A DNA stretch of 64,000 bases, from positions 1,184,001 to 1,248,000 of the forward strand of contig OZ220696.1 of the NCBI GenBank assembly GCA_965116495.1. The letters run 5' to 3'. Under the pieces are notes generated by a model, which had not been told where the DNA came from, ran no database searches, and worked only from the letters and a program-made list of their open reading frames with translations. This document shows positions 1,707 to 36,869 of the stretch, one piece after another (position 1 is the stretch's first letter; every line of letters begins with the position of its first letter). The position numbers and the translations under genes are program-made. This stretch comes from Gammaproteobacteria bacterium. Its GTDB lineage: Bacteria; Pseudomonadota; Gammaproteobacteria; Eutrophobiales; Eutrophobiaceae.

Positions 1707-2696
1707 ATGATAGATGATGAAAGTTCCCTACATGCCCTGGTAGAGGGCACCAACTGGTGGGGGATAGCCACTTTATTCCGTTGTGAACTGGAAAACGACC
1801 CCCGAAATGTCGATATCGCCCTGGTAGGCGTCCCCCACAGCGCGGGGAACGGCACCAGCCAGCGTGACCAGCATTATGGTCCGCGCGCAGTGCGCCATGT
1901 CTCGGCGGAGTATCGCCGGTTCCACCGCGAGTTTGGATTAGACCCCTGGGAATTGTGCCGAATCCGGGATATGGGTGACCCCCGGTTGCCCCATGCCATG
2001 GTGAATGACCTGGCAATGAAGGATATAGAGGCATTTTTCAGGAAACTGGATGTGGCAAATGTGCGGCCCGTTTCGATTGGCGGGGACCATTCCATTGTTT
2101 TGCCTATCCTGCGCGCTATCGCCGGTCCCCAATCAAACCTGGCGGGTGAGCCGATTGCCGTGGTCCACGTGGATGCCCATACTGACACTTACTACGATGA
2201 AGTCCATTATATGGGAAACAGGGAGTGGGCCGGCGGTTGGGGTGTGCTGATGAAAGAGGAAGGCCTGGTTGATCCGGACTGCGTATTCCAGATCGGTATC
2301 AGGGGCCACGGTTATGCCCAGACGGATACGGACCTGGGCTATAATGTCATAGAATACAAGGAATTTCAAAAACTGGGGGCAGCAGGTGTCGTCAGGGAGA
2401 TAAGAGCCCGTATAACAGATGACAAGCCTGTTTACATTACCTTCGACCTGGATGCGCTGGACCCGACCGTGGCGCCGGGCGTGGCAAACGTGGAAGCCGG
2501 AGAAGGTATGAAAATGGGAGAAGCGCTGGAACTGTTGCAGGGTTTGCGCGGCATGAATGTAATCGGGGGCGATGTCGTTGAACTGGTGCCGACCAAGGAT
2601 AACCCCAATATGATTACAAGTATCAATGCCAGTGCCCTGATGTTCGAACAGATAAGTCTGATAGCCGATTACCTGAGCAAGCAAGGTCAAACCTGA
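1707..2696 (+). CDS. Ureohydrolase (agmatinase/arginase family)
   Basis: GGDHS, DAHTD and TFDLDALDP metal-binding motifs; GGDVVEL. Confidence 0.92.
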   Translation: MIDDESSLHALVEGTNWWGIATLFRCELENDPRNVDIALVGVPHSAGNGTSQRDQHYGPRAVRHVSAEYRRFHREFGLDPWELCRIRDMGDPRLPHAMVNDLAMKDIEAFFRKLDVANVRPVSIGGDHSIVLPILRAIAGPQSNLAGEPIAVVHVDAHTDTYYDEVHYMGNREWAGGWGVLMKEEGLVDPDCVFQIGIRGHGYAQTDTDLGYNVIEYKEFQKLGAAGVVREIRARITDDKPVYITFDLDALDPTVAPGVANVEAGEGMKMGEALELLQGLRGMNVIGGDVVELVPTKDNPNMITSINASALMFEQISLIADYLSKQGQT

Positions 2697-3148
2697 TGAT
2701 CCAGTGGCCTCGAGATGAAATTGAACGTGCTTTTAAGCACTATATCGAGCACACCAGGTACTGCGCCGGTTCCGGGAACTGGTCACGCTGGGCGGAACTG
2801 TTCACTGAAGACATCAGGTATTACAGTAACGGAGTCCTGATCTGGACTAACCGGGAAGAAGTGCGGACAGGTGTCGTCGAATATTATTCCGAATACCCGT
2901 TCAATCACGTAGTTGATTTTGCCCTGAACTGGCACGTTATGGATGAAATAAGCGGCCGGGTGGTGTTCACTATGAAAGTTATCATGGATGACCCCGGTGA
3001 CGGTTCCGACTTCAGCGAAGACGTCCTGATACATATCAATTTTGCCGGCAAAGGTAAGTGGAAACTGCAGGAGGATTATTTTAATCCCGACCTGTTCTCC
3101 AGGATGGCTGAAGACTGGATTGAATCAAGAGCTAGTCACACAGGGTAA
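2696..3148 (+). CDS. SnoaL/NTF2-like protein
   Basis: WAELFTED...EDYFNP pattern, 150 aa, TGATG coupling to the ureohydrolase. Confidence 0.75.
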   Translation: MIQWPRDEIERAFKHYIEHTRYCAGSGNWSRWAELFTEDIRYYSNGVLIWTNREEVRTGVVEYYSEYPFNHVVDFALNWHVMDEISGRVVFTMKVIMDDPGDGSDFSEDVLIHINFAGKGKWKLQEDYFNPDLFSRMAEDWIESRASHTG

Positions 3149-4340
3149 GATCATCCAGGACAAGACGGGCGAAATTATAATGCGGCTGATCCCAGAAGGG
3201 CGAGAAGTATTGCTGTGAGCACACGGGCGAATGCCGTGCTTTCTGAATTGCTTCAGTGATTGCGTTGTCTTCCCGGGCGGCTTCCTCGAACATCTCTGCA
3301 AACTGGTCGAAAGCTTCTACCAGTGCCGGATCGTTGGCACTGGATTTATGACAATAATAACCCCGCATTTCTGTTGTATTGTCCGGCCCGTCCGGCAGGG
3401 CAATACCGATTTCAATCATATTCGGCATGACGACAAGATACAGGTTGGGGTACAGCGTCAGAAAATAACCGGACTTTGGTGACGGTTTGTCTGTCCGGCT
3501 TAGCGGCGGGCAGGGCAACTCCGGATAGGTATCCGTCAATTCAGCGTGATTATAGGAAAACCCTACCAGGGCGCCATCATGGACCGGCTGGAATGTTCTG
3601 TTTCCGTCCCCGTCCACGCGCGGCACATCCGAGGATTCATTGTACATTCTGTGGGTGAACGACTCGTGTAACACATTCAAACAGGCATTTTCGCAGTAGG
3701 TTTTCCAGTTGGTATCAATGGTGTCTTCGGTGAGAAACGGCATCCCCTCCTGGTCCCGCGCTATCTCCAGCTTTTCCAGGTCATATTCCTCAAGCAGGTT
3801 GAGTACTGGTTGGATGTAGCCGTTGAACGGCTCAGCGTTGTCTGACAGGTTAATGAATAACAGGCCTTGCCAGACTACTGATTTGACCTGTTTGAGATCA
3901 CCTTCGCCCGGCGCCAGTGCGTCTGCCGTACAATCTTCGTAGCCATTCCAGTAAGGCATGGCAACCAGCTTGCCGTCCAGGCTGTATTCCCAGCCGTGGT
4001 AGGGGACAACCAGCTTTTCCAGCGAGCTTTTTGATTCCATAACAACAGGACAACCATCGTAAGGACAGATGTTATGGAATGTCCGCAGTGTATTATCCGT
4101 ACCGCGTACTGCAATAAACGGCATGCCGCAGACATCAAATTTCTTCACATCACCGGCGTTCTCTGCATCGTACGTGAAAACAGCCGCTACCCAGTGTCTC
4201 GAATAGATTCGCTCTGTTTCCAGGTTATAAACATCCCGGGAGATGAATGCCTGCCTGGGTAATGTCCTTGCCTGCTCTATCGGCCGGCGGATCGCAGCCT
4301 GTTCATCCGGGGAAATTAAATGATCAATATTACCTGACAT
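3132..4340 (-). CDS. Rieske-type aromatic ring-hydroxylating oxygenase alpha-subunit homologue with non-canonical cluster motif
   Basis: TLPRQAF...ERIY..HW, PYHGWEYSLDG, NWK..EN....H....H and C-terminal ED; choline-monooxygenase-like layout. Confidence 0.85.
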   Translation of the reverse strand: MSGNIDHLISPDEQAAIRRPIEQARTLPRQAFISRDVYNLETERIYSRHWVAAVFTYDAENAGDVKKFDVCGMPFIAVRGTDNTLRTFHNICPYDGCPVVMESKSSLEKLVVPYHGWEYSLDGKLVAMPYWNGYEDCTADALAPGEGDLKQVKSVVWQGLLFINLSDNAEPFNGYIQPVLNLLEEYDLEKLEIARDQEGMPFLTEDTIDTNWKTYCENACLNVLHESFTHRMYNESSDVPRVDGDGNRTFQPVHDGALVGFSYNHAELTDTYPELPCPPLSRTDKPSPKSGYFLTLYPNLYLVVMPNMIEIGIALPDGPDNTTEMRGYYCHKSSANDPALVEAFDQFAEMFEEAAREDNAITEAIQKARHSPVCSQQYFSPFWDQPHYNFARLVLDDLTLCD

Positions 4341-4360: not shown

Positions 4361-5389
4361 TCAACCATTATCCAGCATTTCCCTTACCAGTGGAACGACG
4401 CGTTCCTGAAATCGCCGCATGTTGTTTAACATGTAGTCAACAAATTCCGCGCCCGTAAAACCTCCGGGTTTATAGCCGCCCGAGCCGCCTGAAAGCTCCA
4501 CGATCGCCTGGTCAAACCCGAGGTCAAACACCCGTCTTTTCAAGGTTCTTGCAACTTCCTCGTCATTGCCGGCAATAAAACATTCATAAACATCGAAATT
4601 ATTACGGGTGTATTCGGTTGTCCGGTTGCCCTGCCTGGCGCAAGTTTCAATAAACGCGTCAAAATCGAATTCGCCGTCAACCAGTTTTACGCCCACGTTA
4701 CGCGCCAGTTTTACCGTGGAAAAATCACGGCCGGCTTCTTCAAAACGCATTTTTGCAATGGCCAGCAATTCGCGCACATGGTCATCGTCCGCATGATATA
4801 CGTTGATGTGATCCGCAAATTCCGCGGCGATCCTGGGCATCAGTTTTTTGCCGAATATCAACCCTATCCAGATGGGTGGATGAGGCTTCTGGACCGGTTT
4901 AGGCTCATTAACCGCATTCTTCAATTGATAGTATTGTCCATCGAACGTGACATGCTTCTCGGTCCACATCCGCCGAATGATATCCAGTTCCTCCCGGAGT
5001 ATGGCAATACGTTCAGACGGTTTTTCAGGATAAGGTTGACCCCAGGGCAGATGCTGCTGGGGTTCATCACCTGGGCCCATGGCCAGTTGTAACCGGCCAT
5101 TACTTATCTGGTCGACGATACTGCTCGATTTGGCCAGTACCGATGGATGACGTCTGGAGAAGGGTGATACCAGGGGACCGAATTTTACCTTTTTTGTCAG
5201 CTCTGCAATCACCGGCAGGACCGACCATGTGTCCAGGACCGGCGCTTCCTGCGTATAAGGTTCCGGCCCCACGATATTATCCATCATCCACAGGTAGTCG
5301 TAACCAAGTTCTTCGGCAGCAATCCATAATTCTTTTGCTTCTCGGTAGTTACCACCGAGGCCGTTTAAATATACCCCGAAATCAGCCAT
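4361..5389 (-). CDS. LLM-class flavin/F420-dependent oxidoreductase
   Basis: AEELGYD, RHPSVLAK..VDQISNGRL, PKPVQKPHPPIWIG; start at MADF after GGAG. Confidence 0.9.
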   Translation of the reverse strand: MADFGVYLNGLGGNYREAKELWIAAEELGYDYLWMMDNIVGPEPYTQEAPVLDTWSVLPVIAELTKKVKFGPLVSPFSRRHPSVLAKSSSIVDQISNGRLQLAMGPGDEPQQHLPWGQPYPEKPSERIAILREELDIIRRMWTEKHVTFDGQYYQLKNAVNEPKPVQKPHPPIWIGLIFGKKLMPRIAAEFADHINVYHADDDHVRELLAIAKMRFEEAGRDFSTVKLARNVGVKLVDGEFDFDAFIETCARQGNRTTEYTRNNFDVYECFIAGNDEEVARTLKRRVFDLGFDQAIVELSGGSGGYKPGGFTGAEFVDYMLNNMRRFQERVVPLVREMLDNG

Positions 5390-5502
5390 CTGTCGTTCCC
5401 CTTTGTGTATAAAAACCGGGCCACTACAAGCAATAATATCAAATGCAACCGTATCAGTTGAAAAACAATCAAACATTGCCATACTAGAAATGAATTGTAG
5501 CA

Positions 5503-5523
5503 AATACTACTAAATTAGTATTT
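5503..5523. promoter_or_regulatory. Operator-like motif, copy 1 (TACT-N5-AGTA core)
   Basis: Reverse complement is 20/21 identical to 8862-8882; lies between divergent genes. Confidence 0.6.
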
Positions 5524-5565
5524 TGTTTGACGCTGTTGCCACACGTAAACTAAAGGAGGTTGAGC

Positions 5566-5979
5566 GTGACTGAACCGAAGAGTATTTCCGGCCGTTGTCT
5601 CTGTGGCGGTATTCGCTATGAAATTGCCGGTGAAATCATCGGCGCCGGCCACTGCCATTGCGCCATGTGCCGGCAACAATCCGGTAGTGCATTTATGACT
5701 GCCGGATTCGTAGCACCCGGTGAGTTTCACTGGACCGAAGGGGAAAACCTGATAGCGAGCTATGAGTCCTCGCCCGGGGCATTTCGAATCTTCTGCAAGG
5801 TGTGCGGGTCGAACCTCGGCGCGACAGAAGAAGGGCGGGTCACACTGATCTTTCTGGGGACCGTGTCAGGCGATCCGGGCGTTCGCCCGGCAGAACATAT
5901 ATTCGTAGGTTCAAAAGCGCCCTGGCATGAAATTACCGACGACCTGCCACAGTACGACGGGTTCCCTCCCTCTGAGTGA
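5566..5979 (+). CDS. GFA family Zn-binding protein
   Basis: GRCLCG, CHCAMCR, FCKVCGS, HIFVGSKAPW; AAGGAGG RBS before the GTG. Confidence 0.92.
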   Translation: MTEPKSISGRCLCGGIRYEIAGEIIGAGHCHCAMCRQQSGSAFMTAGFVAPGEFHWTEGENLIASYESSPGAFRIFCKVCGSNLGATEEGRVTLIFLGTVSGDPGVRPAEHIFVGSKAPWHEITDDLPQYDGFPPSE

Positions 5980-6032
5980 AGCGCCGGGATGACTTATCCC
6001 GGCAGGTAAAATGTGAAGTATCGCCAAGATGA

Positions 6033-7208
6033 TCAGGTCGAAGTCTGAGGCTCCGGGTACGAATGGCGCCGTAATCCGGCGCTGAACACCAGGCTGCCGG
6101 CAGCGCAGATGAGCGCCAGGATTATTATGAACAGGCCCAGTTCACCATAACCGGAGGCAGTAATGATATTGCCGGCCAGAAACGGGGCGGTTGCCGCACC
6201 CATCAGGTTGATGCCTGTTGCCCTGGCCGCCCAGCGCCCTTCGCCGTCGAGCATTGCACAGCCGCCGATGAGATAGGGAAAACCCAGGAAGAAAGCGAAG
6301 GAGAAGCCCAGAATACTTAGCTCGTATACCCATGTCTGGCCGGTGTTATACACCAGGTAGCCCGCTATGCCCATGATGATGCTGCTCGTCACAAGCGGTA
6401 TGTCCCGCCTGATTCGCTTCCCGGCTGCGGCAGACACTGCAGCGCCACACAAGCCGGCGACCTGGGCCGTCGCGAGAAGCAAACTGATGCGGGTATCGGT
6501 TAACCCCAGGTTGACGCCACTGCGCTCGCTGAAGGACCAGATTGAACCCTCTACGACGCAATAGATAAACAGGAGACCAACGCCGAATACTCCGAGCCGG
6601 AAAACACTGCGGCTATCAAATTGTTCCTTTGATGGCGTTTGAGACTCTGTGTCAGTCGCCGTTCCCGGCAGCATCAGTAACGGGAACAAAGCCAACACCA
6701 GCACAATCAGGTAAATGCCTGTCACGCCGTCAAACATGAACCGTTGCTTCACGAAGCCGATAGCCGTTATCACCATTACCATGAGCACGGTATTTAATCC
6801 TACTACGACACCGGCAACACGGTCAGGATCTGATGCCCGGCTGATTATCGCGCTGCAGGCCGCCAGGCACATACCCGAACCAATACCGCAAAAAATACGA
6901 AGCACTGATAGATAAACCAGGGCATCCTGTGAAAGGCTGAGCAGGTTGCCTGTTGCAGCCAGGCACACACCCGCGACAGCAAGCCTTCGCAGCGGCAGTT
7001 TGTCAAGCCAGCCTGACAACAGCACGCAACTCACGGCTACGGCGCCGATTTCCAGACTGCAGACCAGGCCGGCCTGGCTCTCATCCGTTCCCAGCCCGTC
7101 CATCAGTGCGCCGATATAAAGCGGTGAACTGAAAATGGTCAGGTTGCCGATGAGAAAGCCGGCCAGGGCTTCCAGCGAATAGCGCAGGTCAGAGCTACCG
7201 GTCGCCAT
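6033..7208 (-). CDS. MFS transporter
   Basis: About 12 hydrophobic segments, 391 aa, motif-A-like WLDKLPLRR. Confidence 0.85.
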   Translation of the reverse strand: MATGSSDLRYSLEALAGFLIGNLTIFSSPLYIGALMDGLGTDESQAGLVCSLEIGAVAVSCVLLSGWLDKLPLRRLAVAGVCLAATGNLLSLSQDALVYLSVLRIFCGIGSGMCLAACSAIISRASDPDRVAGVVVGLNTVLMVMVITAIGFVKQRFMFDGVTGIYLIVLVLALFPLLMLPGTATDTESQTPSKEQFDSRSVFRLGVFGVGLLFIYCVVEGSIWSFSERSGVNLGLTDTRISLLLATAQVAGLCGAAVSAAAGKRIRRDIPLVTSSIIMGIAGYLVYNTGQTWVYELSILGFSFAFFLGFPYLIGGCAMLDGEGRWAARATGINLMGAATAPFLAGNIITASGYGELGLFIIILALICAAGSLVFSAGLRRHSYPEPQTST

Positions 7209-8796
7209 TCACTATGCCGTTTTGTTTAAAGATGTTGATTAATGGTCCCAGTTCATCCCTGTAGTGTTTCCATTTTCCCATGGATGACTGGTATATCGGC
7301 TGCCTGACCTGTACTGCACTGGCTGTGGTAGCCGGAGCCGGGTTATTGTGGAATTCGATGCATTGCGACTCCCACTCCAGGTTGCAATATTCCAGTAATT
7401 TCCTCACTTCCGCTTCCGTATTCTCAACAACATCCTCATAGGCCACACAATACAGCGCATCTCCCAGCACATCCCGCCAGTGCTCCACCAGTCGCCGATA
7501 AGCAAGGTAGTACCTGCCAAGTTCCTTCAAGTCATATGAAAACGGATAGATGCCGATGAACATTGTTTTGTAAATTGCAAAGCACGCATCCAGAGGGTCA
7601 CGCTCCAGGAGCACGATTTTTGCGTTCGGCAATGCAGCATGAATTATCCCGCAATACAGATAGTTCAGAGGTAATTTATCGATGAAATGTGGCGTATGGC
7701 CTGTCTTCGGCCTCGTACTTTCAATATAGTTTTCACCCAGCAGAGTGACGTCTGTTGCAACCGACCGGTCAATCATTTCCGTCATTTTCATTGTTGCGGA
7801 TCCTGATTTTTCCTGTATGGACTTGACCAGGACCGAGCTGAAGTTGTTCAGTTCGCCTGCTGAATATACCTTGCTGTGATTCCCGATGATCCTGTCTACC
7901 AGCGAGGTCCCGGTTCTGGGCAGTCCCAGGACAAAAATCGGTTCAGCGGATGCGTTGCCAGGACCGATTTTTGCCAGCGTGTCTTTTGTGTATACGTCGA
8001 TTATGCGGCCGAGCGCCTCGATATCGTCGGATACGTCATAGCGGGTATGGCGCCGCTGCAGGTCACAGGCGGATTTGATAAACCTGAATTGCTCGGCATA
8101 ACGCCCGGTATCCTCGTATTCCTTGGCAACGGCAAACCGCAATGAGATCTCACCACGCCAGTTTGTTACGCCGGAAAGCAGTAAGTCCTTCATTTGCTCA
8201 ATATGATTGTTTTCCTCCGTCCAGCTTTTCAGGTCGGCGCGGGCGTAATAGGCTTGATAGTTATGGGGGTCTGATTTGATGACCTGGTTGAAATTTGCTT
8301 CGGCCCCATCAATATCCCCGGTCATGCGCTGTATCAGGGCCAGGTTTGACCGGTAGAACGTATTGCCCGGTTCCTTATCCACCGCACGTCGGCTGTAAAC
8401 CAGCGCTTTTCCCGTTTCATCACACAGGGAATACATGGTTCCAATCATGTCATTCAGTGATGCTTCGCCCGGGTTGAATGAAACCGCCTTTTCCAGTTCC
8501 GGCAGGGATTGTGAATTTTTCCCGGCGCTGATATAAGCCCTTGCCAGCAGTAAATGGGAGCGGATATTTTCCGGGGCAAGCTCAACTACTTTCTCTGCAT
8601 TTTCTATCGCATTATCGTAATTGCGCTGTGCCATGTTTATGCTACAGAATAACGACCAGACCTGCGGTTTGTGCCGATACGACTTGAATAACTGGTTTGC
8701 AATATTGACGACTTCCTGCAGTTTTCCATTTGCCAGCAGGGTTTCAGCCCTTTGAACCATGTTTTCCAATTCGTTATTGATTGTTTCTGGGGGCAT
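7195..8796 (-). CDS. TPR-containing sulfotransferase family protein
   Basis: N-terminal TPRs; PIFVLGLPRTGTSL (5'-PSB), DKLPLN, RDPLD, YEDVV, TASAVQVRQP. Confidence 0.92.
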   Translation of the reverse strand: MPPETINNELENMVQRAETLLANGKLQEVVNIANQLFKSYRHKPQVWSLFCSINMAQRNYDNAIENAEKVVELAPENIRSHLLLARAYISAGKNSQSLPELEKAVSFNPGEASLNDMIGTMYSLCDETGKALVYSRRAVDKEPGNTFYRSNLALIQRMTGDIDGAEANFNQVIKSDPHNYQAYYARADLKSWTEENNHIEQMKDLLLSGVTNWRGEISLRFAVAKEYEDTGRYAEQFRFIKSACDLQRRHTRYDVSDDIEALGRIIDVYTKDTLAKIGPGNASAEPIFVLGLPRTGTSLVDRIIGNHSKVYSAGELNNFSSVLVKSIQEKSGSATMKMTEMIDRSVATDVTLLGENYIESTRPKTGHTPHFIDKLPLNYLYCGIIHAALPNAKIVLLERDPLDACFAIYKTMFIGIYPFSYDLKELGRYYLAYRRLVEHWRDVLGDALYCVAYEDVVENTEAEVRKLLEYCNLEWESQCIEFHNNPAPATTASAVQVRQPIYQSSMGKWKHYRDELGPLINIFKQNGIVNGDR

Positions 8797-8861
8797 GCCG
8801 GCTGTTTGTTATTTTCGGCCTGAAACGTACCGGTGGGCAAAGGAAATCCGGCTTCATTATT

Positions 8862-8882
8862 AAATACTGATTTAGTAGTATT
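8862..8882. promoter_or_regulatory. Operator-like motif, copy 2
   Basis: AAATACTGATTTAGTAGTATT between divergent sulfotransferase and MBL genes. Confidence 0.6.
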
Positions 8883-8935
8883 ATGTTTGCATTATACTGT
8901 ATGCGTGACTGTATATCACATAAACGACTTAAATC

Positions 8936-9754
8936 GTGAATAACATTGATCCGAATGAAAAGCCAGGAATGAGGCTGCAGGAGTTACCCATTGCGGAGCA
9001 GTGGTACAGCAGCACGACACTGGATGATGGTATAACCCTGCTCACGGAGCCTTATGTGGACCGGCTTATCCGTTGTAACATCTGGCACATAAAAGGAAGG
9101 GAACAGGACCTGTTGATCGATACCGGTCTGGGGGTGTGCAGTCTTAGAGAAGCGGCCCGGGACCTGTTGGAGTCGCGGATTATTGCAGTAGCCACGCATA
9201 CCCATTATGACCATATCGGCAACCATCATGAGTTTGATGTGCGCGCAGTGCATGAAGCGGAGGTCGAACTGATGAGCATGCCTGAACCGGCGCCTTTATT
9301 TCTATCCGAGTTTGGTGAACAGGCGAATTATATTATTGAAGCGGGATATACACCGGACGAAGACCTGATCAAGGCCTTGCCTTATGCCGGGTTCGAACCG
9401 CACCATCATCAAACACAGGCAGCACCTGCAACCTGGATACTCCAGGAGGGTGATGTGATAGACCTGGGTAACCGCGCCTTTGAAGTATTGCATTTACCCG
9501 GTCATACGCCGGGCAGTATCGGCCTGTGGGAAGCTGACACAGGCATCCTGTTTTCCGGGGATGCAATCTATGACGGACCATTGCTCGCCAACCTGCCGGA
9601 AGCTGATATCGACGATTACATCGACACGATGGAGCGCCTGATAAGACTGCCGGTCCGTACCGTGCATGGGGGCCATGAGAGAAGTTTCGATCAACCCCGG
9701 CTGCTGGAAATTGCCAGGAAGTACCTGGAATCCTGGCGTGACGGCAGCACCTGA
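8936..9754 (+). CDS. MBL-fold metallo-hydrolase
   Basis: THTHYDHIG, PGHTPG, SGD and GGH motifs. Confidence 0.92.
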   Translation: MNNIDPNEKPGMRLQELPIAEQWYSSTTLDDGITLLTEPYVDRLIRCNIWHIKGREQDLLIDTGLGVCSLREAARDLLESRIIAVATHTHYDHIGNHHEFDVRAVHEAEVELMSMPEPAPLFLSEFGEQANYIIEAGYTPDEDLIKALPYAGFEPHHHQTQAAPATWILQEGDVIDLGNRAFEVLHLPGHTPGSIGLWEADTGILFSGDAIYDGPLLANLPEADIDDYIDTMERLIRLPVRTVHGGHERSFDQPRLLEIARKYLESWRDGST

Positions 9755-16272: not shown

Positions 16273-17031
16273 TTGACACGGCTCTGCCCGTTTATGGAAA
16301 TTCAGGTTGTTTCGCATAAGGACCGGCCGGAATTCTCTGGCAGACTCAGTGAATTGGAAGGGGAATCATTTCCTGAATTTCTGCTGCATGACGGCTTCGA
16401 CGAATGCCGCCCGCACCTCTTGGGCGAGTTTGCCCGTTATCAGTTTTACTTCGTTGACAAGGCTACCGGAAACCTGTTAGGCGCGGCCAACGCTTTGCCC
16501 TACTTCCGGCAGGCTGATAAACCCCTGCCGGGATTTCAGCAATTACTGGTCACGTCCCCGGACCAGTTCAGGCGGGGCATCACGCCCAATGTCCTGTGCC
16601 CGATACAGGCCATGGTGGTCGATGGCGCACGGGGCAGCGGAGTCTCTGAACGCATCATCTCCGCTTACAAGGACCTGGCCTCAGCGGATGGCCTTAAGGC
16701 AATCTGTGTCCCGGTCAGACCCACGCTCAAGCCCCTTTATCCCCTGGCGCCGATACAGCGCTACATCACCTGGACACGGGAGAACGGTGAGAAATTCGAT
16801 CCCTGGCTGCGCATGCAGGAGCGCACCGGCGCAGAGTTTACGGAAATCACCCACGATTCAACCGTTATTACGGCTCCGGTTTCCGACTGGGAAGCCTGGA
16901 CCGGGATGAAGTTTCCCGAAAACGGTGAATATATCATTCAGGGAGGTCACACTCCGCTGCTCATCGACCGTGAAAATAATTCAGGAAGATACTCGGAACC
17001 CCATGTCTGGTATACCTACCAGCTCGGTTAA
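16273..17031 (+). CDS. GNAT-like protein of unknown specificity
   Basis: ARGSGVS acetyl-CoA loop; PVRPTLK..YP and DPWLR motifs; start codon uncertain. Confidence 0.7.
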   Translation: MTRLCPFMEIQVVSHKDRPEFSGRLSELEGESFPEFLLHDGFDECRPHLLGEFARYQFYFVDKATGNLLGAANALPYFRQADKPLPGFQQLLVTSPDQFRRGITPNVLCPIQAMVVDGARGSGVSERIISAYKDLASADGLKAICVPVRPTLKPLYPLAPIQRYITWTRENGEKFDPWLRMQERTGAEFTEITHDSTVITAPVSDWEAWTGMKFPENGEYIIQGGHTPLLIDRENNSGRYSEPHVWYTYQLG

Positions 17032-18337: not shown

Positions 18338-19942
18338 ATGACACAGGCGCAAACTGCAGAACAAATAGAGCGTATCGTCAATGATGCCATTCAGCACGGC
18401 CGGTTTGATGCTGCAATTGCGCAAAGCCGGGAACTGGCAAGGGTTGAACCCGGTAATGCACTCGGCTGGTTTTTATTGGGGCGGGCAACCCGGCTGTGCG
18501 GAGATATAAAAAAAGCATCTGCATTCCTTGAGAAAGCCGTCAGCCTTGATGCCAATAATGCACAGTCATTACTGGAACTGGCTTACTGCTATTTTGGCCG
18601 CGGCCTGTCGGCAAAAAGCCTTGAAGTGCTTGATCGGATGGAAAAACTGGAAACGGATGATGCAACCACGTCAGGGCGGGCTGCGATGTTATACAACCAG
18701 TTGGGGGAACACTCAAAACCCCTCGCCTTGTTTCAAAATGGACTGACAAAACAACCGGATACGGCCTGGTTACATTTTGGTTTGGCAGAAACACTGCGTT
18801 TCAATGGTGACTTTGTCAAGGCAGAGGCGGAGTATAACGATGCGCTTCGATGTGATGAGCATTGCTATGAGGCATATTATGAACTGGCAAATCTGCGTAC
18901 CTACACCAGAGAAACCAATCACACCAGGAAAATTGAAGCCCTGTTGAATAGTGGAGTACGATCCAAGCGCAATGCTGCAAAGCTTTTGTACGCCCTGGCA
19001 AAGGAATATGAAGATTTTGGAGAGTATAAACGCGCGTTTATAAATATGGTGCGCGCCGGGGAGCTGCTGGCCCAGATCAATAAGTATGATGTGAATTCCG
19101 ATGTCGGTTTCTCTAAAGAAATGGCTGATGCCTATTCAAAGGAATACGCCGACGCAAATACTGTTGCCGGTGGATTTGAAAGCGAAGTCCCGATATTTAT
19201 TACAGGCATGCCCCGTACGGGCACAACGCTGGTCGAACGTATTCTGGGCAGCCACAGTAAAGTATATCCTGGCGGGGAACACCTGGGCCTTGTCACACAA
19301 TTGCATGAACTTATCCCGGAGGCTGAATATGCGTCAGGGGGATTGGTCTTTCTCAGTAAGGACCTTATCAGACAATCAACCCGGCTCGATCATAAGCAAC
19401 TGGGGGTGAAATATATTGAATCTTTACGCTGGCGCATTAAAAATCATCCGTATTTTACAGACAAACTACCCATCAATTTTTATTACATCGGCCTCATCCG
19501 GCAAGCGCTCCCGCATGCCAAAATTATTCATTTGACGCGCAATCCAATGGATACGTGTATCAGTAATTTCAAACAATATTTTACTGAAGGAGCGTACCTG
19601 TTTTCGTACAGTTTAGAGGATTTGAGCGCCTACTATATGGCTTATCGCCGTCTTATGGATCACTGGCACAATGTGTATCCCGGTGTGATTCTTGACGTGA
19701 GCTACGAGGGTCTTGTGAATGATATTGAAGGCGAATCCAAACGTATACTGAACTATTGCGGCCTGGATTTCGAACCGGAATGCCTCAGCTTCTACGAGAA
19801 CAATACGCCAACGACCTCTCGCAGCGCGCGCCAGGTGCGCGAGGCTGTCTACACTTCATCCGCCGGTGGCTGGAAGCGTTATGAAAAATATCTCCAGCCG
19901 TTGGTTGCACACTTCCGCGCGAATGGAATTCCTATCAATTGA
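18338..19942 (+). CDS. TPR-containing sulfotransferase family protein
   Basis: TPRs; PIFITGMPRTGTTL, DKLPIN, RNPMD, YEGLV. Confidence 0.92.
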   Translation: MTQAQTAEQIERIVNDAIQHGRFDAAIAQSRELARVEPGNALGWFLLGRATRLCGDIKKASAFLEKAVSLDANNAQSLLELAYCYFGRGLSAKSLEVLDRMEKLETDDATTSGRAAMLYNQLGEHSKPLALFQNGLTKQPDTAWLHFGLAETLRFNGDFVKAEAEYNDALRCDEHCYEAYYELANLRTYTRETNHTRKIEALLNSGVRSKRNAAKLLYALAKEYEDFGEYKRAFINMVRAGELLAQINKYDVNSDVGFSKEMADAYSKEYADANTVAGGFESEVPIFITGMPRTGTTLVERILGSHSKVYPGGEHLGLVTQLHELIPEAEYASGGLVFLSKDLIRQSTRLDHKQLGVKYIESLRWRIKNHPYFTDKLPINFYYIGLIRQALPHAKIIHLTRNPMDTCISNFKQYFTEGAYLFSYSLEDLSAYYMAYRRLMDHWHNVYPGVILDVSYEGLVNDIEGESKRILNYCGLDFEPECLSFYENNTPTTSRSARQVREAVYTSSAGGWKRYEKYLQPLVAHFRANGIPIN

Positions 19943-19977
19943 TAGTACGGTCGTCAAGCGGCCGCGAATATATTAGT

Positions 19978-20982
19978 ATGCCGACTATGGTTGACGACAT
20001 ATATGCCAGGACAATCAAGATGTTCGGTTCCCGTCCCGAGCCTGCGTTTGAAACCGCGGCTGAACTCAAGGCTGTCTGGGGCCGGGAGTGGGGCTGTGAT
20101 ACCGACGTGGGGAAATTGAAAACGGTATTGATGCACCGGCCCGGCTCCGAATTCGATATTATCGATACAACCAAACGCATAGAAAGTATCGGCTCTTACG
20201 GCGATATTGAGGAAGGCTGGTATTTCCAGAGTGATACCATTCCTGACCTGCCGTCGATGCAGGCCGACCACGACGGCCTGGTGCGGGTCCTGAAAGAAGA
20301 GGGTGTTGAGGTAATTATGCTGGAAGGGGATATCGGCGGCCGCTTCAAATCCTGTTATACGCGTGATTCCTCCATTGCCGTCAAGGGCGGCGCCATAGTT
20401 TCGCGGCTTGCGCCGAAGATGCGCCGGGGAGAGGAGTTGCCTGTCTCCCGGACCCTGGCGAGACATGGCGTACCTATATTGCATACGATAAATGGCACCG
20501 GGATGCTGGAAGGAGGAAGTTTTGCCTGGTTGAATTCCACAACTGCCGTGGTCGGACGTTCAATCCGGGTGAACAATGCCGCTATCGAACAACTGGAAAA
20601 TACCCTGAAACACCAGGGAGTAGAGCTGATAGTGACCGACCTGTGCGGCTATTCCATCCATATTGACCTGTATTTTCTCATGATCGATGTCAATCTGGCT
20701 CTTGTGAATGCCGCTAACCTGGCATACGTATTTTTGCAGCGATTAAAGCAGCTGAACATCGATACCGTTGAAATCACGCCGGATGATGACCCATGGGTTA
20801 TGAATGGACTGGCTGTTGCACCGGGCCGCGTTATCATGTCTCCCGGATTGTCTGCCGGGACCCGCACAGAACTGGAACGGCGTAATATTGAGATAATTGA
20901 GATTCCCTACGGCAACATGCAGAAAAACGGCGGCGGCATACACTGTTCCACCTGCCCGCTTATGCGCGAGTCAATGGATTAA
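19978..20982 (+). CDS. Amidinotransferase/arginine deiminase/DDAH (pentein) family enzyme
   Basis: LKTVLMHRPG.E, YTRD, EGG, HID, C-terminal GGIHCST. Confidence 0.9.
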   Translation: MPTMVDDIYARTIKMFGSRPEPAFETAAELKAVWGREWGCDTDVGKLKTVLMHRPGSEFDIIDTTKRIESIGSYGDIEEGWYFQSDTIPDLPSMQADHDGLVRVLKEEGVEVIMLEGDIGGRFKSCYTRDSSIAVKGGAIVSRLAPKMRRGEELPVSRTLARHGVPILHTINGTGMLEGGSFAWLNSTTAVVGRSIRVNNAAIEQLENTLKHQGVELIVTDLCGYSIHIDLYFLMIDVNLALVNAANLAYVFLQRLKQLNIDTVEITPDDDPWVMNGLAVAPGRVIMSPGLSAGTRTELERRNIEIIEIPYGNMQKNGGGIHCSTCPLMRESMD

Positions 20983-21004: not shown

Positions 21005-21871
21005 TCACAGAAACCCGCGCAATTCTGCAATAAACTGCTCCAGCTGATCATGGTGCGGCCAGTGGCCGGCATCGTCATACAGGGAAACCTCTGCGTTGGC
21101 GAAATAGTTCAGTCTGCCGTCTTCAGCAGGGTTGGATGCCCAACTGTCCTTGCCGTAGATTAAACGGGTTGGACAGGTAATCGAACCCCAAAGCACCTTG
21201 ACGACCTCCGGGTCCAGGTCGACAGGCGGCATTACGCGCACGCAGTTATCGAATTTCCAACTGTAGCTGCCGTCTTCGTTCTGGATGATGCCGTGGTCGG
21301 TGAGATGGCGGGCCTGCTCATCCGACAAATGACTGTTGGCCGACTTCATGCGCCGGTAAGCTTGCGCCAGGGAGTTGTAGCGTTTCGGCTGTCTCCCAGA
21401 CAACTGCCGCCGCTCATCAATCCAGCTACGCAGGCGCTGCGCCATAGGCACACTCTCCTGGTTCGCCTGGGTTTCCGGCGGCAACCCCAGGCCTTCAATA
21501 GCAACGAGTTTGCGTACCGCCTGTGGATACAGGCCCGTGTAGCGCAATGAAACAGAACCGCCCAGGGAATGGGCGACAATCGTGACCGGTTGCAGGTCAA
21601 GCTGGTGTATCAACTGGGCCAGGTCGTAGACAAAAGCCGACATCGAATAAGTCCCGTCCGGCGACCAGTCACTGTCGCCATGCCCCCTGAGGTCGGGCGC
21701 AATAACGTGCCAGTCCTGCGCCAGTTCGCGCGCAACCCAGTCCCAGCTCCGGCAATGGTCCCTGTTTCCATGTACCAGCAACAGCGGCGGCGCACCAGGA
21801 TTGCCCCAATCAACATAGTGCAGGCGCAGGCGCTGGGAAATATATATATGGGAGGTAGGCCCGGTAATCAT
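21005..21871 (-). CDS. Alpha/beta hydrolase
   Basis: LLVHG, DLRGHGDS, AHSLGG nucleophile elbow, AGHWPH. Confidence 0.92.
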   Translation of the reverse strand: MITGPTSHIYISQRLRLHYVDWGNPGAPPLLLVHGNRDHCRSWDWVARELAQDWHVIAPDLRGHGDSDWSPDGTYSMSAFVYDLAQLIHQLDLQPVTIVAHSLGGSVSLRYTGLYPQAVRKLVAIEGLGLPPETQANQESVPMAQRLRSWIDERRQLSGRQPKRYNSLAQAYRRMKSANSHLSDEQARHLTDHGIIQNEDGSYSWKFDNCVRVMPPVDLDPEVVKVLWGSITCPTRLIYGKDSWASNPAEDGRLNYFANAEVSLYDDAGHWPHHDQLEQFIAELRGFL

Positions 21872-22626
21872 TACTGCACAGATATATCGCAGCCCAGGAA
21901 ATTTCTATTCTGACTATGAGCGGCTTCCATTACAGAAAAAGAACCTGCCGCGGGATCCACAATAATATCTCCCTCATTGCTCACTGACGCGATTAACTTG
22001 CTTTGCAAATCAACCGGCTTTCGGTGCGGGTTACCACCGTTGTTTTTTACCTGTTCTGTCCATACATCCGGAATATTATGTAATTTCCACACTCCCTTGG
22101 CTTTGCGGGGCTGTTTTTGAAATATGACCAGATACTCGCCCATTCTCCGGGTGCGGTAGCCCATGCCCATCCTGTTTTTGTTCCAGACAATCATGTCCAC
22201 GACATCAAGATTAGTGCCGTCAATCCAGGGTTTGAAACCCTGGCACAGGTGGAATTTATCTATCCATAAAAACAAGTGGCCTGATGGCATCAGTATTTTG
22301 TCAATTCCGACAATGAACTCCTTTATTTTCAACTCCGTCATTTGCAGCAGGCTAGACCGCCTCTTTCCGCGTTGCTTCCCTTCATTCCCATAACTCATCT
22401 TATCCAGTAACCCTCGATATTGAGGGTCAAAGAAAACTATGGGAAAGGAACCAGCGGGCAGCATTGAAAGAAACTCCAATCCGTCCATTTCCAACTTGGA
22501 ATTGAGTATCAATTCACGGGACAGGTTTATCTCGGGCTGTATGATATCCCGATCAGGTGAATAAACAGAGGGGGTTGCTTTATTAGATGAATCCGGTTCC
22601 GCGCGTGCTTCTACTGTATTTGACAT
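21871..22626 (-). CDS. Orphan N4C/N6A DNA methyltransferase (beta-class order)
   Basis: Motif IV FDPQY, H.KP..L, motif I IVDPAAGS, RNFLGCDI. Confidence 0.85.
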   Translation of the reverse strand: MSNTVEARAEPDSSNKATPSVYSPDRDIIQPEINLSRELILNSKLEMDGLEFLSMLPAGSFPIVFFDPQYRGLLDKMSYGNEGKQRGKRRSSLLQMTELKIKEFIVGIDKILMPSGHLFLWIDKFHLCQGFKPWIDGTNLDVVDMIVWNKNRMGMGYRTRRMGEYLVIFQKQPRKAKGVWKLHNIPDVWTEQVKNNGGNPHRKPVDLQSKLIASVSNEGDIIVDPAAGSFSVMEAAHSQNRNFLGCDISVQ

Positions 22627-22855
22627 GACCCTCTCTCTTTGCATGATTACGGTGGTTAGCACAACGATATCCATGATTAAATTGGACAGTCCCGGGAACT
22701 GCATACATCCAATTTAGCTTATTTTTCATGTCTATTAATTGTACAACGGTAATGATTGCAGCATTAGCTATCTTAACCTGGAAACAAACGAGACATCGTC
22801 AGTTACAAGTTAACATTTTATGACGGAATTTCCTAGTTTAAGGAGTGTTAAGGAG

Positions 22856-25163: not shown

Positions 25164-25457
25164 ATGATTGATAGCATACTTTCACAGTATCAGTTGCCGG
25201 GTGATATCCAGCATTCGTTGTCGGCCTCGTTCAGGACCGCGCGGCAATTCAGAAAGCACAGCCGCAAAGAGGCAAGCAGCCGGAGCGGTGTGCCGGAGGG
25301 GACTATTCGGCGATTCGAGGATACCGGCGAGATATCATTGAGACAGCTGCTGATGTTGTGTGATGTTTACGGCAGTCTTATCACCGCCAGCTCGATGTTT
25401 CCGAAACCTGAGCCACAAAGCATGGACGAGCTGATTGCGATGGGTAATTCCAAATGA
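25164..25457 (+). CDS. HipB-like XRE HTH antitoxin
   Basis: SRSGVPEGTIRRFEDTGEISL HTH; overlaps the hipA start. Confidence 0.8.
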   Translation: MIDSILSQYQLPGDIQHSLSASFRTARQFRKHSRKEASSRSGVPEGTIRRFEDTGEISLRQLLMLCDVYGSLITASSMFPKPEPQSMDELIAMGNSK

Positions 25458-26806
25458 AACTGCTGACTGTCCTCTACCACGGTTTCGGCGCAGGCAAGCC
25501 AATGAGAATGGGGCGTCTGGCCTGGCATGAACAGCATGCCTGGTTTGAGTTTTCGGCAGACTTTCTGCAACACAACACCTACCCGTCTCCTTTTTTCCTT
25601 AAGTTGACAACAAAATTACAGAAGGGGCCAACAAAGCCCTTCAACGGATTGCATGGATTATTCAGCGATTCCCTGCCGGATGGCTGGGGGCTTTATCTCA
25701 TGGACAAGGCGTTCAGACAGACCGGACGAGACCTTGCCGCGATCACCCCGCTTGACAGGTTAGCCTATGTGGGCAATCGAGCAATGGGGGCAATATCGTA
25801 TGAACCGGATGAGATGGAAAACGCAGAACGCGACGGGAGTATGGAGCTGGATATGGCGACAGTCGGACATGAAGCGACCAATTTGTACCTGGGGGAACTC
25901 TCGGACGTGCTGGCGCATCATGCAATTAATGGGACGCCCTCTGCCGGGGCCAGGCCGAAAATCCTCATCGGCATAAGTGGTGACAGCGCGATTGAGGGCG
26001 CCGGCGATCTCCCGTCTGGCTATGCCCATTGGCTGGCCAAGTTCCCAACTGGACGAACACCCGATAAAAAAACGGAAGGCACTATAGAGTATATCTACGC
26101 GCTGATGGCCCGCCGGGCCGGCATCAATATGAGTGAAACAAGGCTTTCACCCAACCGGGACGGCAATGCGTATTTCATGACGCGCCGCTTTGACAGAACG
26201 GCGGGTAACCGTCGTCACCATGTGCACAGTGTGGCCGGTATGTTGAACACGGACTTCAGGATCGCCAACCTTGACTACAAGGACCTCATAAAACTGTGTG
26301 GCTTGCTGACACATTCCCATACGGAGAAGGTAGAGCTGTTCCGGCGCATGGTCTTCAATGTGTTATCCGGCAACCGGGATGACCATACAAGGAATTTCGC
26401 CTTCATGTTGACGGACAAAAACGAATGGGTCAATACGCCGGCGTATGACGTCACCTGGTCCCGGGGGATGGTCGGCGAACATACCATGAGCGTTAACGGA
26501 AAGGGCAAGGATATCCGTCTTGATGATATTCGTGCTGTCGCCAGGACTTCATCGATAACCGGACAGGATGTGAACAGCGTCGTTGATAGCGTCATGGAAG
26601 CGGTTTCCGGCTGGCATTCCTTGGCACTGCAATACGATGTGCCGTCTGAACAACGCCAGGACATACAGCAATATTTGTTGCGTCAGCAGCGCGCGCTCTC
26701 AACCGCAGCCGTGTCCGTTTCACCGGTAGAAAACGATACCTATCACATGGAACACATAACAGACAAGGACGACGTGTCTGAGCCTTCGATGGAGCGCCAA
26801 GCGTAA
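25454..26806 (+). CDS. hipA: HipA-family kinase toxin
   Basis: FSDSLPDGWG, SAGARPK, RRFDR, GNRDDHTRNF, PAYD. Confidence 0.92.
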   Translation: MKLLTVLYHGFGAGKPMRMGRLAWHEQHAWFEFSADFLQHNTYPSPFFLKLTTKLQKGPTKPFNGLHGLFSDSLPDGWGLYLMDKAFRQTGRDLAAITPLDRLAYVGNRAMGAISYEPDEMENAERDGSMELDMATVGHEATNLYLGELSDVLAHHAINGTPSAGARPKILIGISGDSAIEGAGDLPSGYAHWLAKFPTGRTPDKKTEGTIEYIYALMARRAGINMSETRLSPNRDGNAYFMTRRFDRTAGNRRHHVHSVAGMLNTDFRIANLDYKDLIKLCGLLTHSHTEKVELFRRMVFNVLSGNRDDHTRNFAFMLTDKNEWVNTPAYDVTWSRGMVGEHTMSVNGKGKDIRLDDIRAVARTSSITGQDVNSVVDSVMEAVSGWHSLALQYDVPSEQRQDIQQYLLRQQRALSTAAVSVSPVENDTYHMEHITDKDDVSEPSMERQA

Positions 26807-27163: not shown

Positions 27164-30100
27164 ATGACTGCTGAACAAACCCTTTGGGGGACAGAGGCAT
27201 CCCCTTATAACCTCAATCCTCCTGATAACTCACTGTGGTGGTTGATTAAACGTCTCTATGGCGAAGGCTATGATTTGAGTGACGCAGCAGTTACTGAGGC
27301 AATCAACTCGTATACAAGAAACTTCACAGTCCCAATCCGGAATGGTGTCATTACCGTTCACATCGAATCATTGCCGCCCGAGCAACAACAGGTCGCTTTA
27401 CGCGCAACCGAATCCTGGGCGATGCTTATCGGCCATACTGTTACCATCGATAACCGCTCTGTCAATGATAACCATGCGCCCGTGCTGCTTTTTACCAATG
27501 AAGATGCCTACAGCGCAACAGGAAGCAATTATATTGCCGGTTATGGAAGAGGATACGACAGGCTGAGTGGCATGTGGGAAATCACCGGCACAATAAATGT
27601 GCCAACAAGTTTCTACGACGCTACAAACAGCATATCTGCCTATATTCATGAAATCGGTCACTCTCTCAGTCTTGATCATCCTGGCCCATATACTGTTACC
27701 GGTGACCAGAGCACATTTATAAACGGCGACCCCCTGGACCGATTCGATGCGCGCGTTTTGTCCAATGACCACGACCGTTTCACCGTCTTGACCTATTTCC
27801 CCCCACTGGATGAAGAAAACCGTGAAATCCCATATGAACCCGTTACCCCGATGCTCGCAGATATCCTGATCATTCAATTGCTGTACGGCAAGGGAGAAAA
27901 AATCCACCACGGCGATACGGTGTATGGCGTCAATGCCGATACCGGTTCCTTCCTGGAACACTACTTTCCGGACATGGCTGAAGAAAACTACGCGCTGACC
28001 CTGGTGGATACCGGTGGTTATGACACACTGGACTTCTCCGACCACGACCCCGCGGCACACGATCAAACACTGCGCATTAACCTGAACCCCTACTGGAGTT
28101 CGGATGTGTATAACACGCCGGGTAATGTCATCATCGGCCCCGACACCTGGATTGAGCGGGCCGTAGGCGGTGCGGGTGATGATCACATTACCGGCAATAT
28201 CATTGACAATGATCTCGTCGGCAATGCCGGTGATGACACGTTGCTGGGTGGGCCCGGCAACGACACACTGCACGGTGGACCCGGTCGCGACATCCTGGAC
28301 GGGCACACCGGATCGGACACCGCCGATTACTCGGACTCCCCTGTGGGAATAGATGTAAATCTGGACACCGGCACGGCCCGAGGGGGCGATGCGGCCGGTG
28401 ACACGTTGATTTCCATCGAAAATCTCACCGGTTCATCTTACCGGGACACCTTGACCGGCGATGCCAACGATAACATCCTGGGGGGTGGGGCAGGCGCTGA
28501 CCGGTTGGACGGCGGACCAGGCCAGGACACTGCCGCTTATACTACCTCTGACAACCGGGTTCAGATAAACCTGGCCACAGGCAGCATCAGCGGCGGTGAT
28601 GCCGCGGGCGATACGTTCCTGTCCATTGAAAACCTGGCGGGCTCCGGACACAACGACAGTTTAACCGGCGATGCCGGCGATAACGTCCTTACGGGGGAGG
28701 CAGGCGCTGACGTTCTGGTTGGCGGGCCAGGTATTGATACGGCGAGTTACCTGAGCTCTGATACGTCAGTCACCGTGCGCCTGCATGCCTTGCTGGCCAC
28801 CGGTGGCGATGCAGAAGGAGATGTTTTCGGCGTCACCATGACCGTCTCCTACATGCAACCCGACGGCGCGACGGCAACCGAAACCGTGCCCGATATCGAG
28901 AACCTGGCCGGCTCAGACTACGACGATATCCTGGCTGGCGACCGGCGGGATAACGTCTTAAACGGTTACGCCGGTCACGACAAACTGTACGGCGGCCCGG
29001 GCGGTGGCGATGATACGCTGTCAGGTGGCAGCGGTGATGATTCCCTGTATGGCGGGCTTGGTATGGATTTACTCGTCGGTGAAGGTGGCCACGACGCCCT
29101 TATTGGCGGGGCGGGGAATGACACCCTGGACGGTGGTGACGGTGATGATACCTTGCGGGGTGGGTCGGGCGCAGATGTCTTGATGGGTGGCGCCGGTCTC
29201 GACCGTGCCGATTATTCCGACTCGGACAATGCCGTCACCGTACGCCTGCACTCGCTGGCTAGCGCGGGCGGTGATGCGCAGGGAGATATCTTCGGCAACA
29301 CCATCCCCGTTGCCTACCGGCGGGCCGACGGGAGTACCGGGGTCGAGTCATTGCCTGACATTGAGCACCTGACGGGATCAGCGCATAACGACATCCTGGC
29401 GGGTGACCGGCGAGATAACGTCCTCATCGGCGGTGGCGGTGACGATATCTTGTATGGTGGGCCCGGAGGGGGCAACGACACCCTGTTCGGAAACAATGGC
29501 AACGATACCTTGTACGGCGGATTGGGTGATGACGTACTGAACGGAGAAGCCGGTGATGACCAACTCAAAGGTGGCGCCGGCAACGATATCCTGAAAGGCG
29601 GGACAGGGCGCAATACTCTGGATGGCGGCACGGGTCGGGATAGCGCGAGTTTTGAATTTGCCGCCGCCGGCATCACGGCAAACCTTGATGACCCAGCGGA
29701 ATCGGATAACCTGGTCAGACAGAATACGCTGGTTTCCATCGAGAACCTGACCGGGTCAAACTACGGCGACACGTTAATCGGCGATGCAGGTGATAACGTT
29801 CTTGCCGGCCTGAACGGGGACGATGCATTACATGGAGGCCCAGGGGATGACGTGTTACGCGGCGGGCCCGGCGCCGATGTCCTGGATGGCGGCGACGGCA
29901 TGGACACCGCCGATTACAGCCAGGCCACGTCCGGCATCCTGCACACGGAAGGGGATACACTGAACGACGTCGAAATTATCATCGGTTCGGACTATCGCGA
30001 CCACCTGTTCGGTCCCGACACCCAACCGCATGAGTCGTATGCTTCAACAGGAACGTATACTTTCTATCGGAGCAGAACCAGCGAAGATATTACCATTCAA

Positions 30101-35074: not shown

Positions 35075-35328
35075 GGGTCAGGTCGCAGATTGCCCGGTTC
35101 AGTCAAAAACATGACGAAAATTATTGAAAACGGGATAATCTCAGAGATTCCTTAAGTTTGATAGGGACTGTAAATTTTCTGTTTAAGGACACCACGGCGC
35201 AGAAGCTATCGGGGCCCGCAGGGATAATACCCTGCAATACTGGGGTTGGTTTTCAGGGGCGTGCAATAGTGCATGAATATTTAATAAAATTACTTGCATT
35301 ATAAGCTGAAACAGCGTACCATGTGTCC

Positions 35329-36865: not shown

Positions 36866-36869
36866 GCGG

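Follow-up and report, generated by a model that had tools for sequence, protein, structure and literature searches.

Rieske oxygenases (ROs) are defined by the pairing of a 2Fe-2S cluster with a mononuclear iron, and in the accessible parts of the literature searched the characterised ROs, including NdmC/NdmD and the split chlorophyllide a oxygenase (CAO) of Micromonas, all use electrons from a Rieske cluster. What, then, can an RO do once its cluster is gone? The question is raised by a gene in a 64,000-nucleotide stretch of contig OZ220696.1 (assembly GCA_965116495.1; the window in the following) from a gammaproteobacterium, which encodes the 402-residue RO homologue P0001. Judging from its relatives, the gene is an intact member of a widespread conserved clade and not a decayed one, and its product is very probably a cluster-less mononuclear iron enzyme with one iron and no iron-sulfur cluster. 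Our preferred reading of its function, to which we give a probability of roughly 0.4, is a reductase-free dioxygenase that would cleave a nitrogen-rich substrate ahead of a hydrolase, with the substrate supplying all electrons.

According to Pfam, P0001 consists of a Rieske domain (residues 50-130) and a Ring_hydroxyl_A domain (residues 208-380). The ligand motif of Rieske clusters is described as Cys-x-His...Cys-x-x-His (PMC12445004). A preliminary description of this DNA had claimed that an intact, full-length RO homologue has here lost half of these ligands together with the acid that bridges cluster and iron, and the codons bear this out (Table 1). As it had proposed, the first His is replaced by Tyr and the second Cys by Val, with an Asp and an extra Cys nearby; the Asp stands where canonical enzymes have an Arg after the first His. 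The bridging Asp or Glu, which in canonical ROs connects the cluster His of one subunit with the iron His of its neighbour, is Asn222, and the 2-His-1-carboxylate iron site is retained as His225, His230 and Asp358. In 64 of 64 canonical controls the five positions read C, H, C, H and D or E, and the motif is complete in all 50 canonical paralogues of the own genome. Sequencing error and strain-specific decay are ruled out, since contigs from runs X2 and X3 (either of which is possibly the source sample) cover the whole gene with 0 differences, the substitutions recur across the family and the genes are under purifying selection.

Structure prediction, which the preliminary description had suggested, gives a confident model (predicted local distance difference test, pLDDT, 94.9) in which both domains are folded and the full RO fold is present, a Rieske domain followed by a Bet v1-like catalytic domain. 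Among solved structures it comes closest to two quaternary-amine ROs of group V, the carnitine monooxygenase CntA (6Y8J/6ZGP) and the stachydrine demethylase Stc2 (3VCA), which are also the best PDB profile matches. P0001 shares whole fold and domain order with CntA (Z 36.2, root-mean-square deviation 2.9 over 346 residues) and with Stc2 (Z 35.5, 3.3 over 364 residues) at about 19-24% identity, and the His-His-Asp triad is common to all three. But CntA and Stc2 have the C-x-H/C-x-x-H ligands and a bridging Glu and depend on a reductase, whereas P0001 lacks two ligands and the bridge. In HMMER alignments Asn222 falls on the bridging Glu of CntA and Glu226 on Cys209, which is exchanged in the C209A chain relative to wild-type CntA and is reported to adjoin the iron (PMC10952381). 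The CntA Tyr203 position, where group Va quaternary-amine ROs of the CntA type are described as having an aromatic residue for cation-pi binding (PMC7948474), is Ala219 in P0001, with Trp in 23 and Tyr in three of 173 members, although a one-residue insertion leaves this position ambiguous.

How general are these changes? A protein search gave 111 matches. The best 90 (E-value below 1e-66, 33-89% identity) all have the altered motifs, and after a gap canonical enzymes follow at E-values above 1e-31. Loci were taken as the best 80 of 114 stretches from GTDB genomes and the best 78 of 105 from metagenomes, 158 in all; their sources include Gammaproteobacteria, Alphaproteobacteria, Acidimicrobiia, Myxococcota and Chloroflexi, and sponge metagenomes are two of the runs that contain part of the region. 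Deep members were added by a full hidden Markov model search of representatives at 50% identity. The resulting 253 distinct sequences comprise P0001-P0091, locus copies above 250 bits and the representatives P0113-P0143, a count that leaves out further cluster-less fragments ranked below P0143.

Across this family the second Cys is never present (0/251) and the first His is found in five of 250 members, the others having Tyr (237) or Phe (8). The two retained ligands behave differently: His115 is conserved in 250/251 members, whereas Cys92 is found in 159/250 and replaced by Val, Ser, Gly or Thr in the other 91. Asp95 is invariant (250/250) and Cys97 is frequent (224/250); six members have neither Cys92 nor Cys97, so that no Cys is invariant. 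No member has all four canonical ligands, one has three and one has none. The bridging position is Asn in 251 of 253 members and Glu in two. In the iron triad His225 and His230 (both 253/253) and Asp358 (242/242) never vary. Glu226 is present in 248/253 members vs 0/64 canonical controls, and Arg241 in 250/253. The ratio of nonsynonymous to synonymous substitution rates (dN/dS) is 0.12-0.25 in 15 pairs among six close genes, and 0.07-0.31 for the Rieske domain alone, which is as conserved as the catalytic one. The altered motifs, for which a homologue comparison had been suggested in the preliminary description, define a conserved clade under purifying selection, and close homologues do not keep CxH/CxxH.

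Against the named RO equivalogs GbcA, AndAc, HcaE, BenA and AntA the best NCBIfam score is 98 bits, with a cut-off of 670, and a search of the ESM Atlas with P0001 gave generic RO clusters only. By sequence the family is RO-derived but not RO by definition, as the two defining features fail and the cut-offs of the named equivalogs lie far above its scores. We did not find the family described in the literature searched, which was mostly open-access, so that a mention inside a large phylogeny or network supplement remains possible.

The trees suggest how this state arose. When the ligand, bridge and Glu226 columns are left out, the 29 cluster-less sequences among the 67 rows group in a single clade with support of 100/99, and an earlier tree of 78 rows built from all columns has the same single clade (Shimodaira-Hasegawa-like approximate likelihood ratio 100). 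Two independent losses of the cluster are rejected by the approximately unbiased test (p-AU 0.005). The clade emerges, with support of 99/95, among cluster-intact ROs that have Glu226 and mostly an Arg like Arg241. Such cluster-intact representatives with Glu226 number nine of 98, most with the following Arg, and seven of them (P0144, P0145, P0146, P0148, P0155, P0161 and P0246) form the sister grade; unlike the clade, these sisters have all four ligands and the bridging Asp or Glu. By these trees the cluster was lost once, among cluster-intact sisters that already had Glu226, and the idea that Glu226 was an innovation accompanying the loss is rejected by its presence in these sisters. A search for the gene neighbourhoods of such sisters in the loci of 401 sampled genomes met no case of the H-E motif combined with an intact cluster motif, within what the script for these motifs was able to read. 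The first split within the clade separates P0139 and P0141, which retain the bridging Glu. This suggests that loss of the cluster preceded loss of the bridge, although the tree test does not reject a reversion within the crown (p-AU 0.065).

How would such an enzyme obtain electrons? The bridging Glu of CntA is reported to be required for transfer from cluster to iron, the E205A, E205Q and E205D variants being inactive (PMC7948474, PMC7986066). With Asn at the bridge and no cluster, the canonical electron path is, as read from the residues, broken at both ends. The preliminary description had also stated that no reductase gene is in the window. This is true in whole-genome searches, which place no reductase or 2Fe-2S ferredoxin gene there and the nearest reductase 72.5 kb away, but as evidence it carries no weight, because none of the 50 canonical paralogues has a reductase within 9 kb either (10/50 have a reductase or ferredoxin). 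With this control we reject the missing neighbour as an argument. The own genome (G000) has about 50 canonical RO alpha genes and only eight candidate reductases, all of them more than 9 kb from any alpha gene, so that a few reductases must serve many oxygenases there. The eight reductases and 12 ferredoxins of this genome, used as queries, find no reductase or small ferredoxin in the 158 loci; the four weak matches are canonical alpha subunits. More informative is that the family gene is the only ring-hydroxylase alpha subunit in five of 37 carrier genomes (completeness not given), and therefore no canonical partner is needed. Other Rieske domains in these five genomes lie in frames of 107-233 residues, except for one unexplained protein of 550 residues.

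For the gene neighbourhood, the 158 loci and the window were reduced to 94 groups at 80% identity, and the 50 canonical paralogues of the own genome served as a control. Within 3 kb of the gene we find a metallo-beta-lactamase (MBL)-fold hydrolase in 28/94 groups, a flavin amine oxidase in 27 (adjacent and co-directional in 17), an alpha/beta hydrolase in 22, a GNAT-like protein in 12 and a luciferase-like oxidoreductase of the F420 type (LLM) in 10. In the 60 groups with full flanks the numbers are 19 (MBL), 18 (amine oxidase), 15 (alpha/beta hydrolase), 9 (GNAT) and 9 (LLM), and beside the 50 canonical paralogues 0, 0, 5, 0 and 1, one control gene exceeding the 3-kb limit for the amine oxidase by only about 100 bases. 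At least one of these five commonest partners is present in 61/94 groups. Over whole loci the MBL-fold hydrolase occurs in 31/94 groups, the alpha/beta hydrolase in 24/94 and both in only three (p 0.013), which looks like two solutions to one step. In the genus of the window the MBL-fold hydrolase is found in five of six carriers vs 0/17 non-carriers (the kin are not independent, and a few matches run through a stop); in two genomes with two copies of the gene the copy number of the hydrolase is the same, and it is present in 28 of 37 other carrier genomes. Also recurrent in the loci are amidases, carbamoylases, aminotransferases and aldehyde dehydrogenases, and enzymes acting on guanidino groups are found in 11 groups.

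The dioxygenase-then-hydrolase reading is favoured because the smallest recurring modules consist of the family gene and one hydrolase, sometimes with a transporter. Enzymes such as the extradiol dioxygenases, isopenicillin N synthase, hydroxyethylphosphonate dioxygenase and the cupin domain of SznF work with one 2-His-1-carboxylate iron, O2 and electrons from the substrate. We propose them as working analogues of P0001, although their folds are unrelated and the likeness is proposed only. The order of a dioxygenase followed by a deformylase is likewise a familiar pattern, as in NicX/NicD and in tryptophan dioxygenase/formamidase. In the proposed mechanism an electron-rich nitrogen heterocycle, amidine or guanidine would bind next to Fe(II), with Glu226, Arg241 and conserved tyrosines holding it in place. 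The substrate itself would then reduce the iron-bound O2 with four electrons, and a ring or a C-N or C-C bond would be cleaved to an N-formyl or N-acyl product. Deacylation would fall to the partner hydrolase, of MBL fold or alpha/beta fold depending on the lineage, and the remaining steps to amine oxidoreductases, amidino hydrolases and aldehyde dehydrogenases. The emptied Rieske domain is likely retained as a structural partner in a head-to-tail assembly of the kind that canonical ROs form as trimers. Metal, oligomer, use of O2 and substrate class are all inferred here, and so is a chemistry that would differ from that of canonical ROs.

There are several points that weigh against this reading. 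The roles given to the pocket residues rest on the alignment to CntA, and a neutral Asn beside an iron-binding His would be expected to raise the potential of the iron, possibly making Lewis-acid chemistry more favourable than chemistry with O2. Only one genome supplied the neighbour control, and since the profiles derive from genes beside the family itself, the control is biased towards zero. The p-value for mutual exclusion of the two hydrolases ignores kinship and truncation. Furthermore, the neighbourhoods are varied, with none of the five commonest partners in 33/94 groups (many contigs being short), and the MBL-fold hydrolase is missing from nine of the 37 carrier genomes.

The first alternative is that P0001 is a non-redox metallo-hydrolase or lyase, in which the His-His-Asp metal would activate an amidine or water, with the Glu of the H-E-x-x-x-H motif, Glu226, as general base. 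The near-constant Glu226, absent from the canonical controls and aligned with an iron-adjacent residue, suits this role, as do the lack of a conserved redox partner and the neighbours that act on amides and amidines. The H-E motif recalls HExxH/HExxxH metallohydrolases, but in P0001 it sits on the RO fold and not on a metallopeptidase fold. However, Glu226 predates the loss of the cluster and is more likely a substrate contact, because it was inherited from cluster-intact redox enzymes, and the loci already contain at least one hydrolase. We consider this alternative unlikely, at about one chance in a handful.

Somewhat less likely is an oxygen-donor enzyme that dealkylates amines, either with H2O2 from the flavin amine oxidase or with the oxygen of an N-O bond in the substrate itself, which would then be an amine oxide or a hydroxylamine. 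The amine oxidase is frequent near the family gene and absent beside the canonical paralogues, and an acid-base Glu with an Arg would fit peroxide cleavage, as in heme peroxygenases. Genes of the glutathione-dependent formaldehyde-activating (GFA) family in four groups hint at the release of formaldehyde. There is also a precedent in CntA, which is reported to turn over with H2O2 and substrate without its reductase in a peroxide shunt (PMC10952381, PMC7986066). Yet an orthologue of the oxidase is found in only 11/37 carriers and in 0/23 genomes of the own genus, among them the genome of the window (29 candidates per genome scored, a second oxidase type lying outside the query), which leaves H2O2 from the amine oxidase unsupported as a general requirement, and the oxidase could equally act downstream on an amine product. 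We find no signal for the LLM replacing the amine oxidase (both in 2/94 groups, p 0.72).

A monooxygenase fed from outside is doubtful. Its electrons could come from a Rieske domain in trans, from a mixed oligomer with a canonical alpha subunit, or from a small cosubstrate such as reduced F420 or flavin, a 2-oxoacid or ascorbate. Two natural systems are precedents as far as they are described in the accessible parts of the sources. NdmC, the 7-methylxanthine N7-demethylase, is like P0001 an RO catalytic chain without an own 2Fe-2S cluster, and receives electrons from the Rieske domain of NdmD (PMC10380055). However, it sits in a fixed complex with the reductase NdmD (and NdmE) as feeder, whereas P0001 retains the emptied Rieske domain, which still occupies the position of a donor, and has Asn at the bridge on the catalytic chain itself, where a donor Rieske centre would need the acid. 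A partner of the NdmD type, with Rieske domain and reductase, also finds no counterpart among the reductases and small ferredoxins sought in the 158 loci. The Micromonas CAO (MpCAO) is split into two chains (PMC9615114) and, like P0001, illustrates that cluster and iron site need not both function in one chain; but there each chain supplies what the other lacks, and NADPH and a reductase are still used, whereas the family gene is the sole alpha subunit in five genomes, one of them with the 550-residue Rieske protein mentioned above. A canonical RO lies within 3 kb in 12/94 groups; a mixed oligomer is possible in these but is not the rule. A cosubstrate is suggested by the LLM, which is found in 11 groups over whole loci and directly upstream in the window, and by a locus that carries F420 synthesis genes, but 83/94 groups have no LLM.

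The preliminary description had left open a cluster-less or a re-liganded enzyme; the former is favoured and the latter improbable. A re-liganded centre would hold a single metal or a new 2Fe-2S cluster where the Rieske cluster used to be, with Cys92, Cys97, Asp95, Tyr94 and His115 as ligands, and the conservation of all but Cys92 and of the domain as a whole is consistent with this. A re-liganded cluster is unlikely, however, because no Cys is invariant, with six members having neither and one lacking all four canonical ligands; a working redox centre would be expected to retain the bridging acid, and Asp95, which replaces an Arg, need not face the site. Finally, the loss of an essential cofactor looks like decay in a single sequence, but decay, or a binding or regulatory role without catalysis, is very improbable given that 253 sequences with identities as low as 33% share an invariant triad and pocket residues, and given the low dN/dS, the single ancient origin and the repeated placement among enzymes.

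In the window the gene belongs to an island of about 22 kb (Table 1) that further contains a second LLM, two MFS carriers and a TonB receptor. The LLM directly upstream and the family gene are likely co-transcribed; the LLM orthologue in L001 is closest to TIGR03560, below the cut-off of that family. A scan for promoters and terminators gave no signal above chance, and no RNA data set is listed as containing the region, which carries no information about expression. The MBL-fold hydrolase presumably resembles human MBLAC2. For MBLAC2 an acyl-CoA hydrolase activity is reported (PMC7949124).

Table 1. Coordinates in the window of the family gene, its altered motifs and the genes of the same island
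Feature	Position	Strand	Basis or remark
Gene of the cluster-less RO homologue P0001, 402 residues	3132..4340	-	intact open reading frame
Degenerate Rieske ligand loops (Cys92, Tyr94, Asp95, Cys97, Val112, His115)	3996..4067	-	codons, family counts
Cys92, canonical ligand retained	4065-4067	-	TGT
Tyr94, at first His position	4059-4061	-	TAC
Asp95	4056-4058	-	
Cys97, additional	4050-4052	-	
Val112, at second Cys position	4005-4007	-	GTC
His115, canonical ligand retained	3996-3998	-	CAC
Catalytic-helix motif (Asn218, Asn222, His225, Glu226, His230)	3651..3689	-	alignment, codons
Asn222, at bridging Asp/Glu position	3675-3677	-	AAT
Asp358, triad carboxylate	3267..3269	-	aligned to ED motif of CntA and Stc2
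Luciferase-like (F420-type) oxidoreductase, directly upstream, 20-nt gap	4361..5503	-	Pfam
MBL-fold hydrolase, most constant partner of the family	8936..9754	+	Pfam, neighbour counts
GNAT-like protein, of a family recurrent beside the gene in other genomes	16273..17031	+	neighbour profiles
Agmatinase-like ureohydrolase, same island	1707..2696	+	Pfam
Arginine-deiminase/DDAH-like amidino hydrolase, same island	19939..20982	+	
GFA family protein, same island	5560..5979	+	Pfam

A stretch that seems, by labels we assume, to be of mobile or defence type adjoins this catabolic island, with what we take to be a DNA methyltransferase-like gene, a HipA-like kinase and AbiEi/AbiEii-like gene pairs (21871-22704, 25454-26806 and 35323-40417). 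At 27164-30550 on the forward strand lies a gene for a 1128-residue protein, presumably RTX/serralysin-like, in which a zinc-protease-like motif is combined with numerous glycine-rich calcium-binding repeats. Other loci show further variation. In L007 (9906-13689) a fusion of CofC with a radical SAM protein of the CofH type and an F420:NADP oxidoreductase stand beside the gene and two LLMs, and this island may carry its own F420 supply. L060 has two divergent family copies in one cluster (5688-6950 and 7962-9176), and in L068 (6925-9575) a frameshifted copy lies directly ahead of a second one. The gene in L006 (Neomarinimicrobiota; 74% identical to P0001) and L058 (Patescibacteria; a 2.1-kb contig) reflects binning errors or transfers. 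The fusion search scored no longer or fused forms, which is weak evidence. Family members, and some of the cluster-intact sisters, are automatically named 'choline monooxygenase'.

One subclade, from Crenothrix, Methylobacter, Thiothrix and Leucothrix, has the gene in a different setting, beside two uncharacterised genes, a heme-oxygenase-like diiron protein and polyketide synthases. In L018, L020, L073, L019, L015 and L012 (extensions L189 and L190) this looks like a biosynthetic cluster, with the gene at about 8001-9210 in the full loci; besides the uncharacterised genes (about 165 and 420 residues) it includes a secreted-looking 160-residue protein, and the heme-oxygenase-like protein is a tandem one. 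Three of the subclade loci also have a histidine-ammonia-lyase-like enzyme and a hydroxylase of the GntD/VioC type, which in L018 scores above the GntD cut-off, and the product of the cluster is possibly arginine-derived. The all-helical 420-residue protein (L018:9737-11002) and five homologues have no Pfam or NCBIfam match and no clear fold match. The predicted fold of the partner c21 (pLDDT 68.7) has no Foldseek match at E 0.001 and a best Z of 6.8. In the guanidine-terpene clusters of gromomycin and darumycin, as far as the accessible parts of the sources describe them, there are three Rieske proteins of unresolved role (PMC13625510, PMC13010261).

Taken together, we tentatively suggest that a branch of the ROs dropped its entire electron-transfer chain and turned into an iron dioxygenase that is self-sufficient and cleaves rings or C-N bonds, acting on nitrogen heterocycles or cyclic guanidines. 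The enzyme would be catabolic in marine and sponge-associated bacteria, while in Crenothrix, Leucothrix, Thiothrix and Methylobacter it would have been recruited to a polyketide pathway derived from arginine, with living intermediates surviving as intact sisters with the new pocket and as cluster-less forms with the bridging Glu. A natural and widespread family without cluster and bridge would show what the iron site does by itself, a point relevant to the nature of the active oxidant, which PMC13178082 raises as an open question. It would also give a scaffold for reductase-free biocatalysis, in which missing redox partners are a named obstacle (PMC12445004). Cultured carriers of the gene exist (L007/L024 and L020). 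The family further points to the mis-annotation of its members as choline monooxygenase and to a route, so far unrecognised, by which marine bacteria turn over organic nitrogen.

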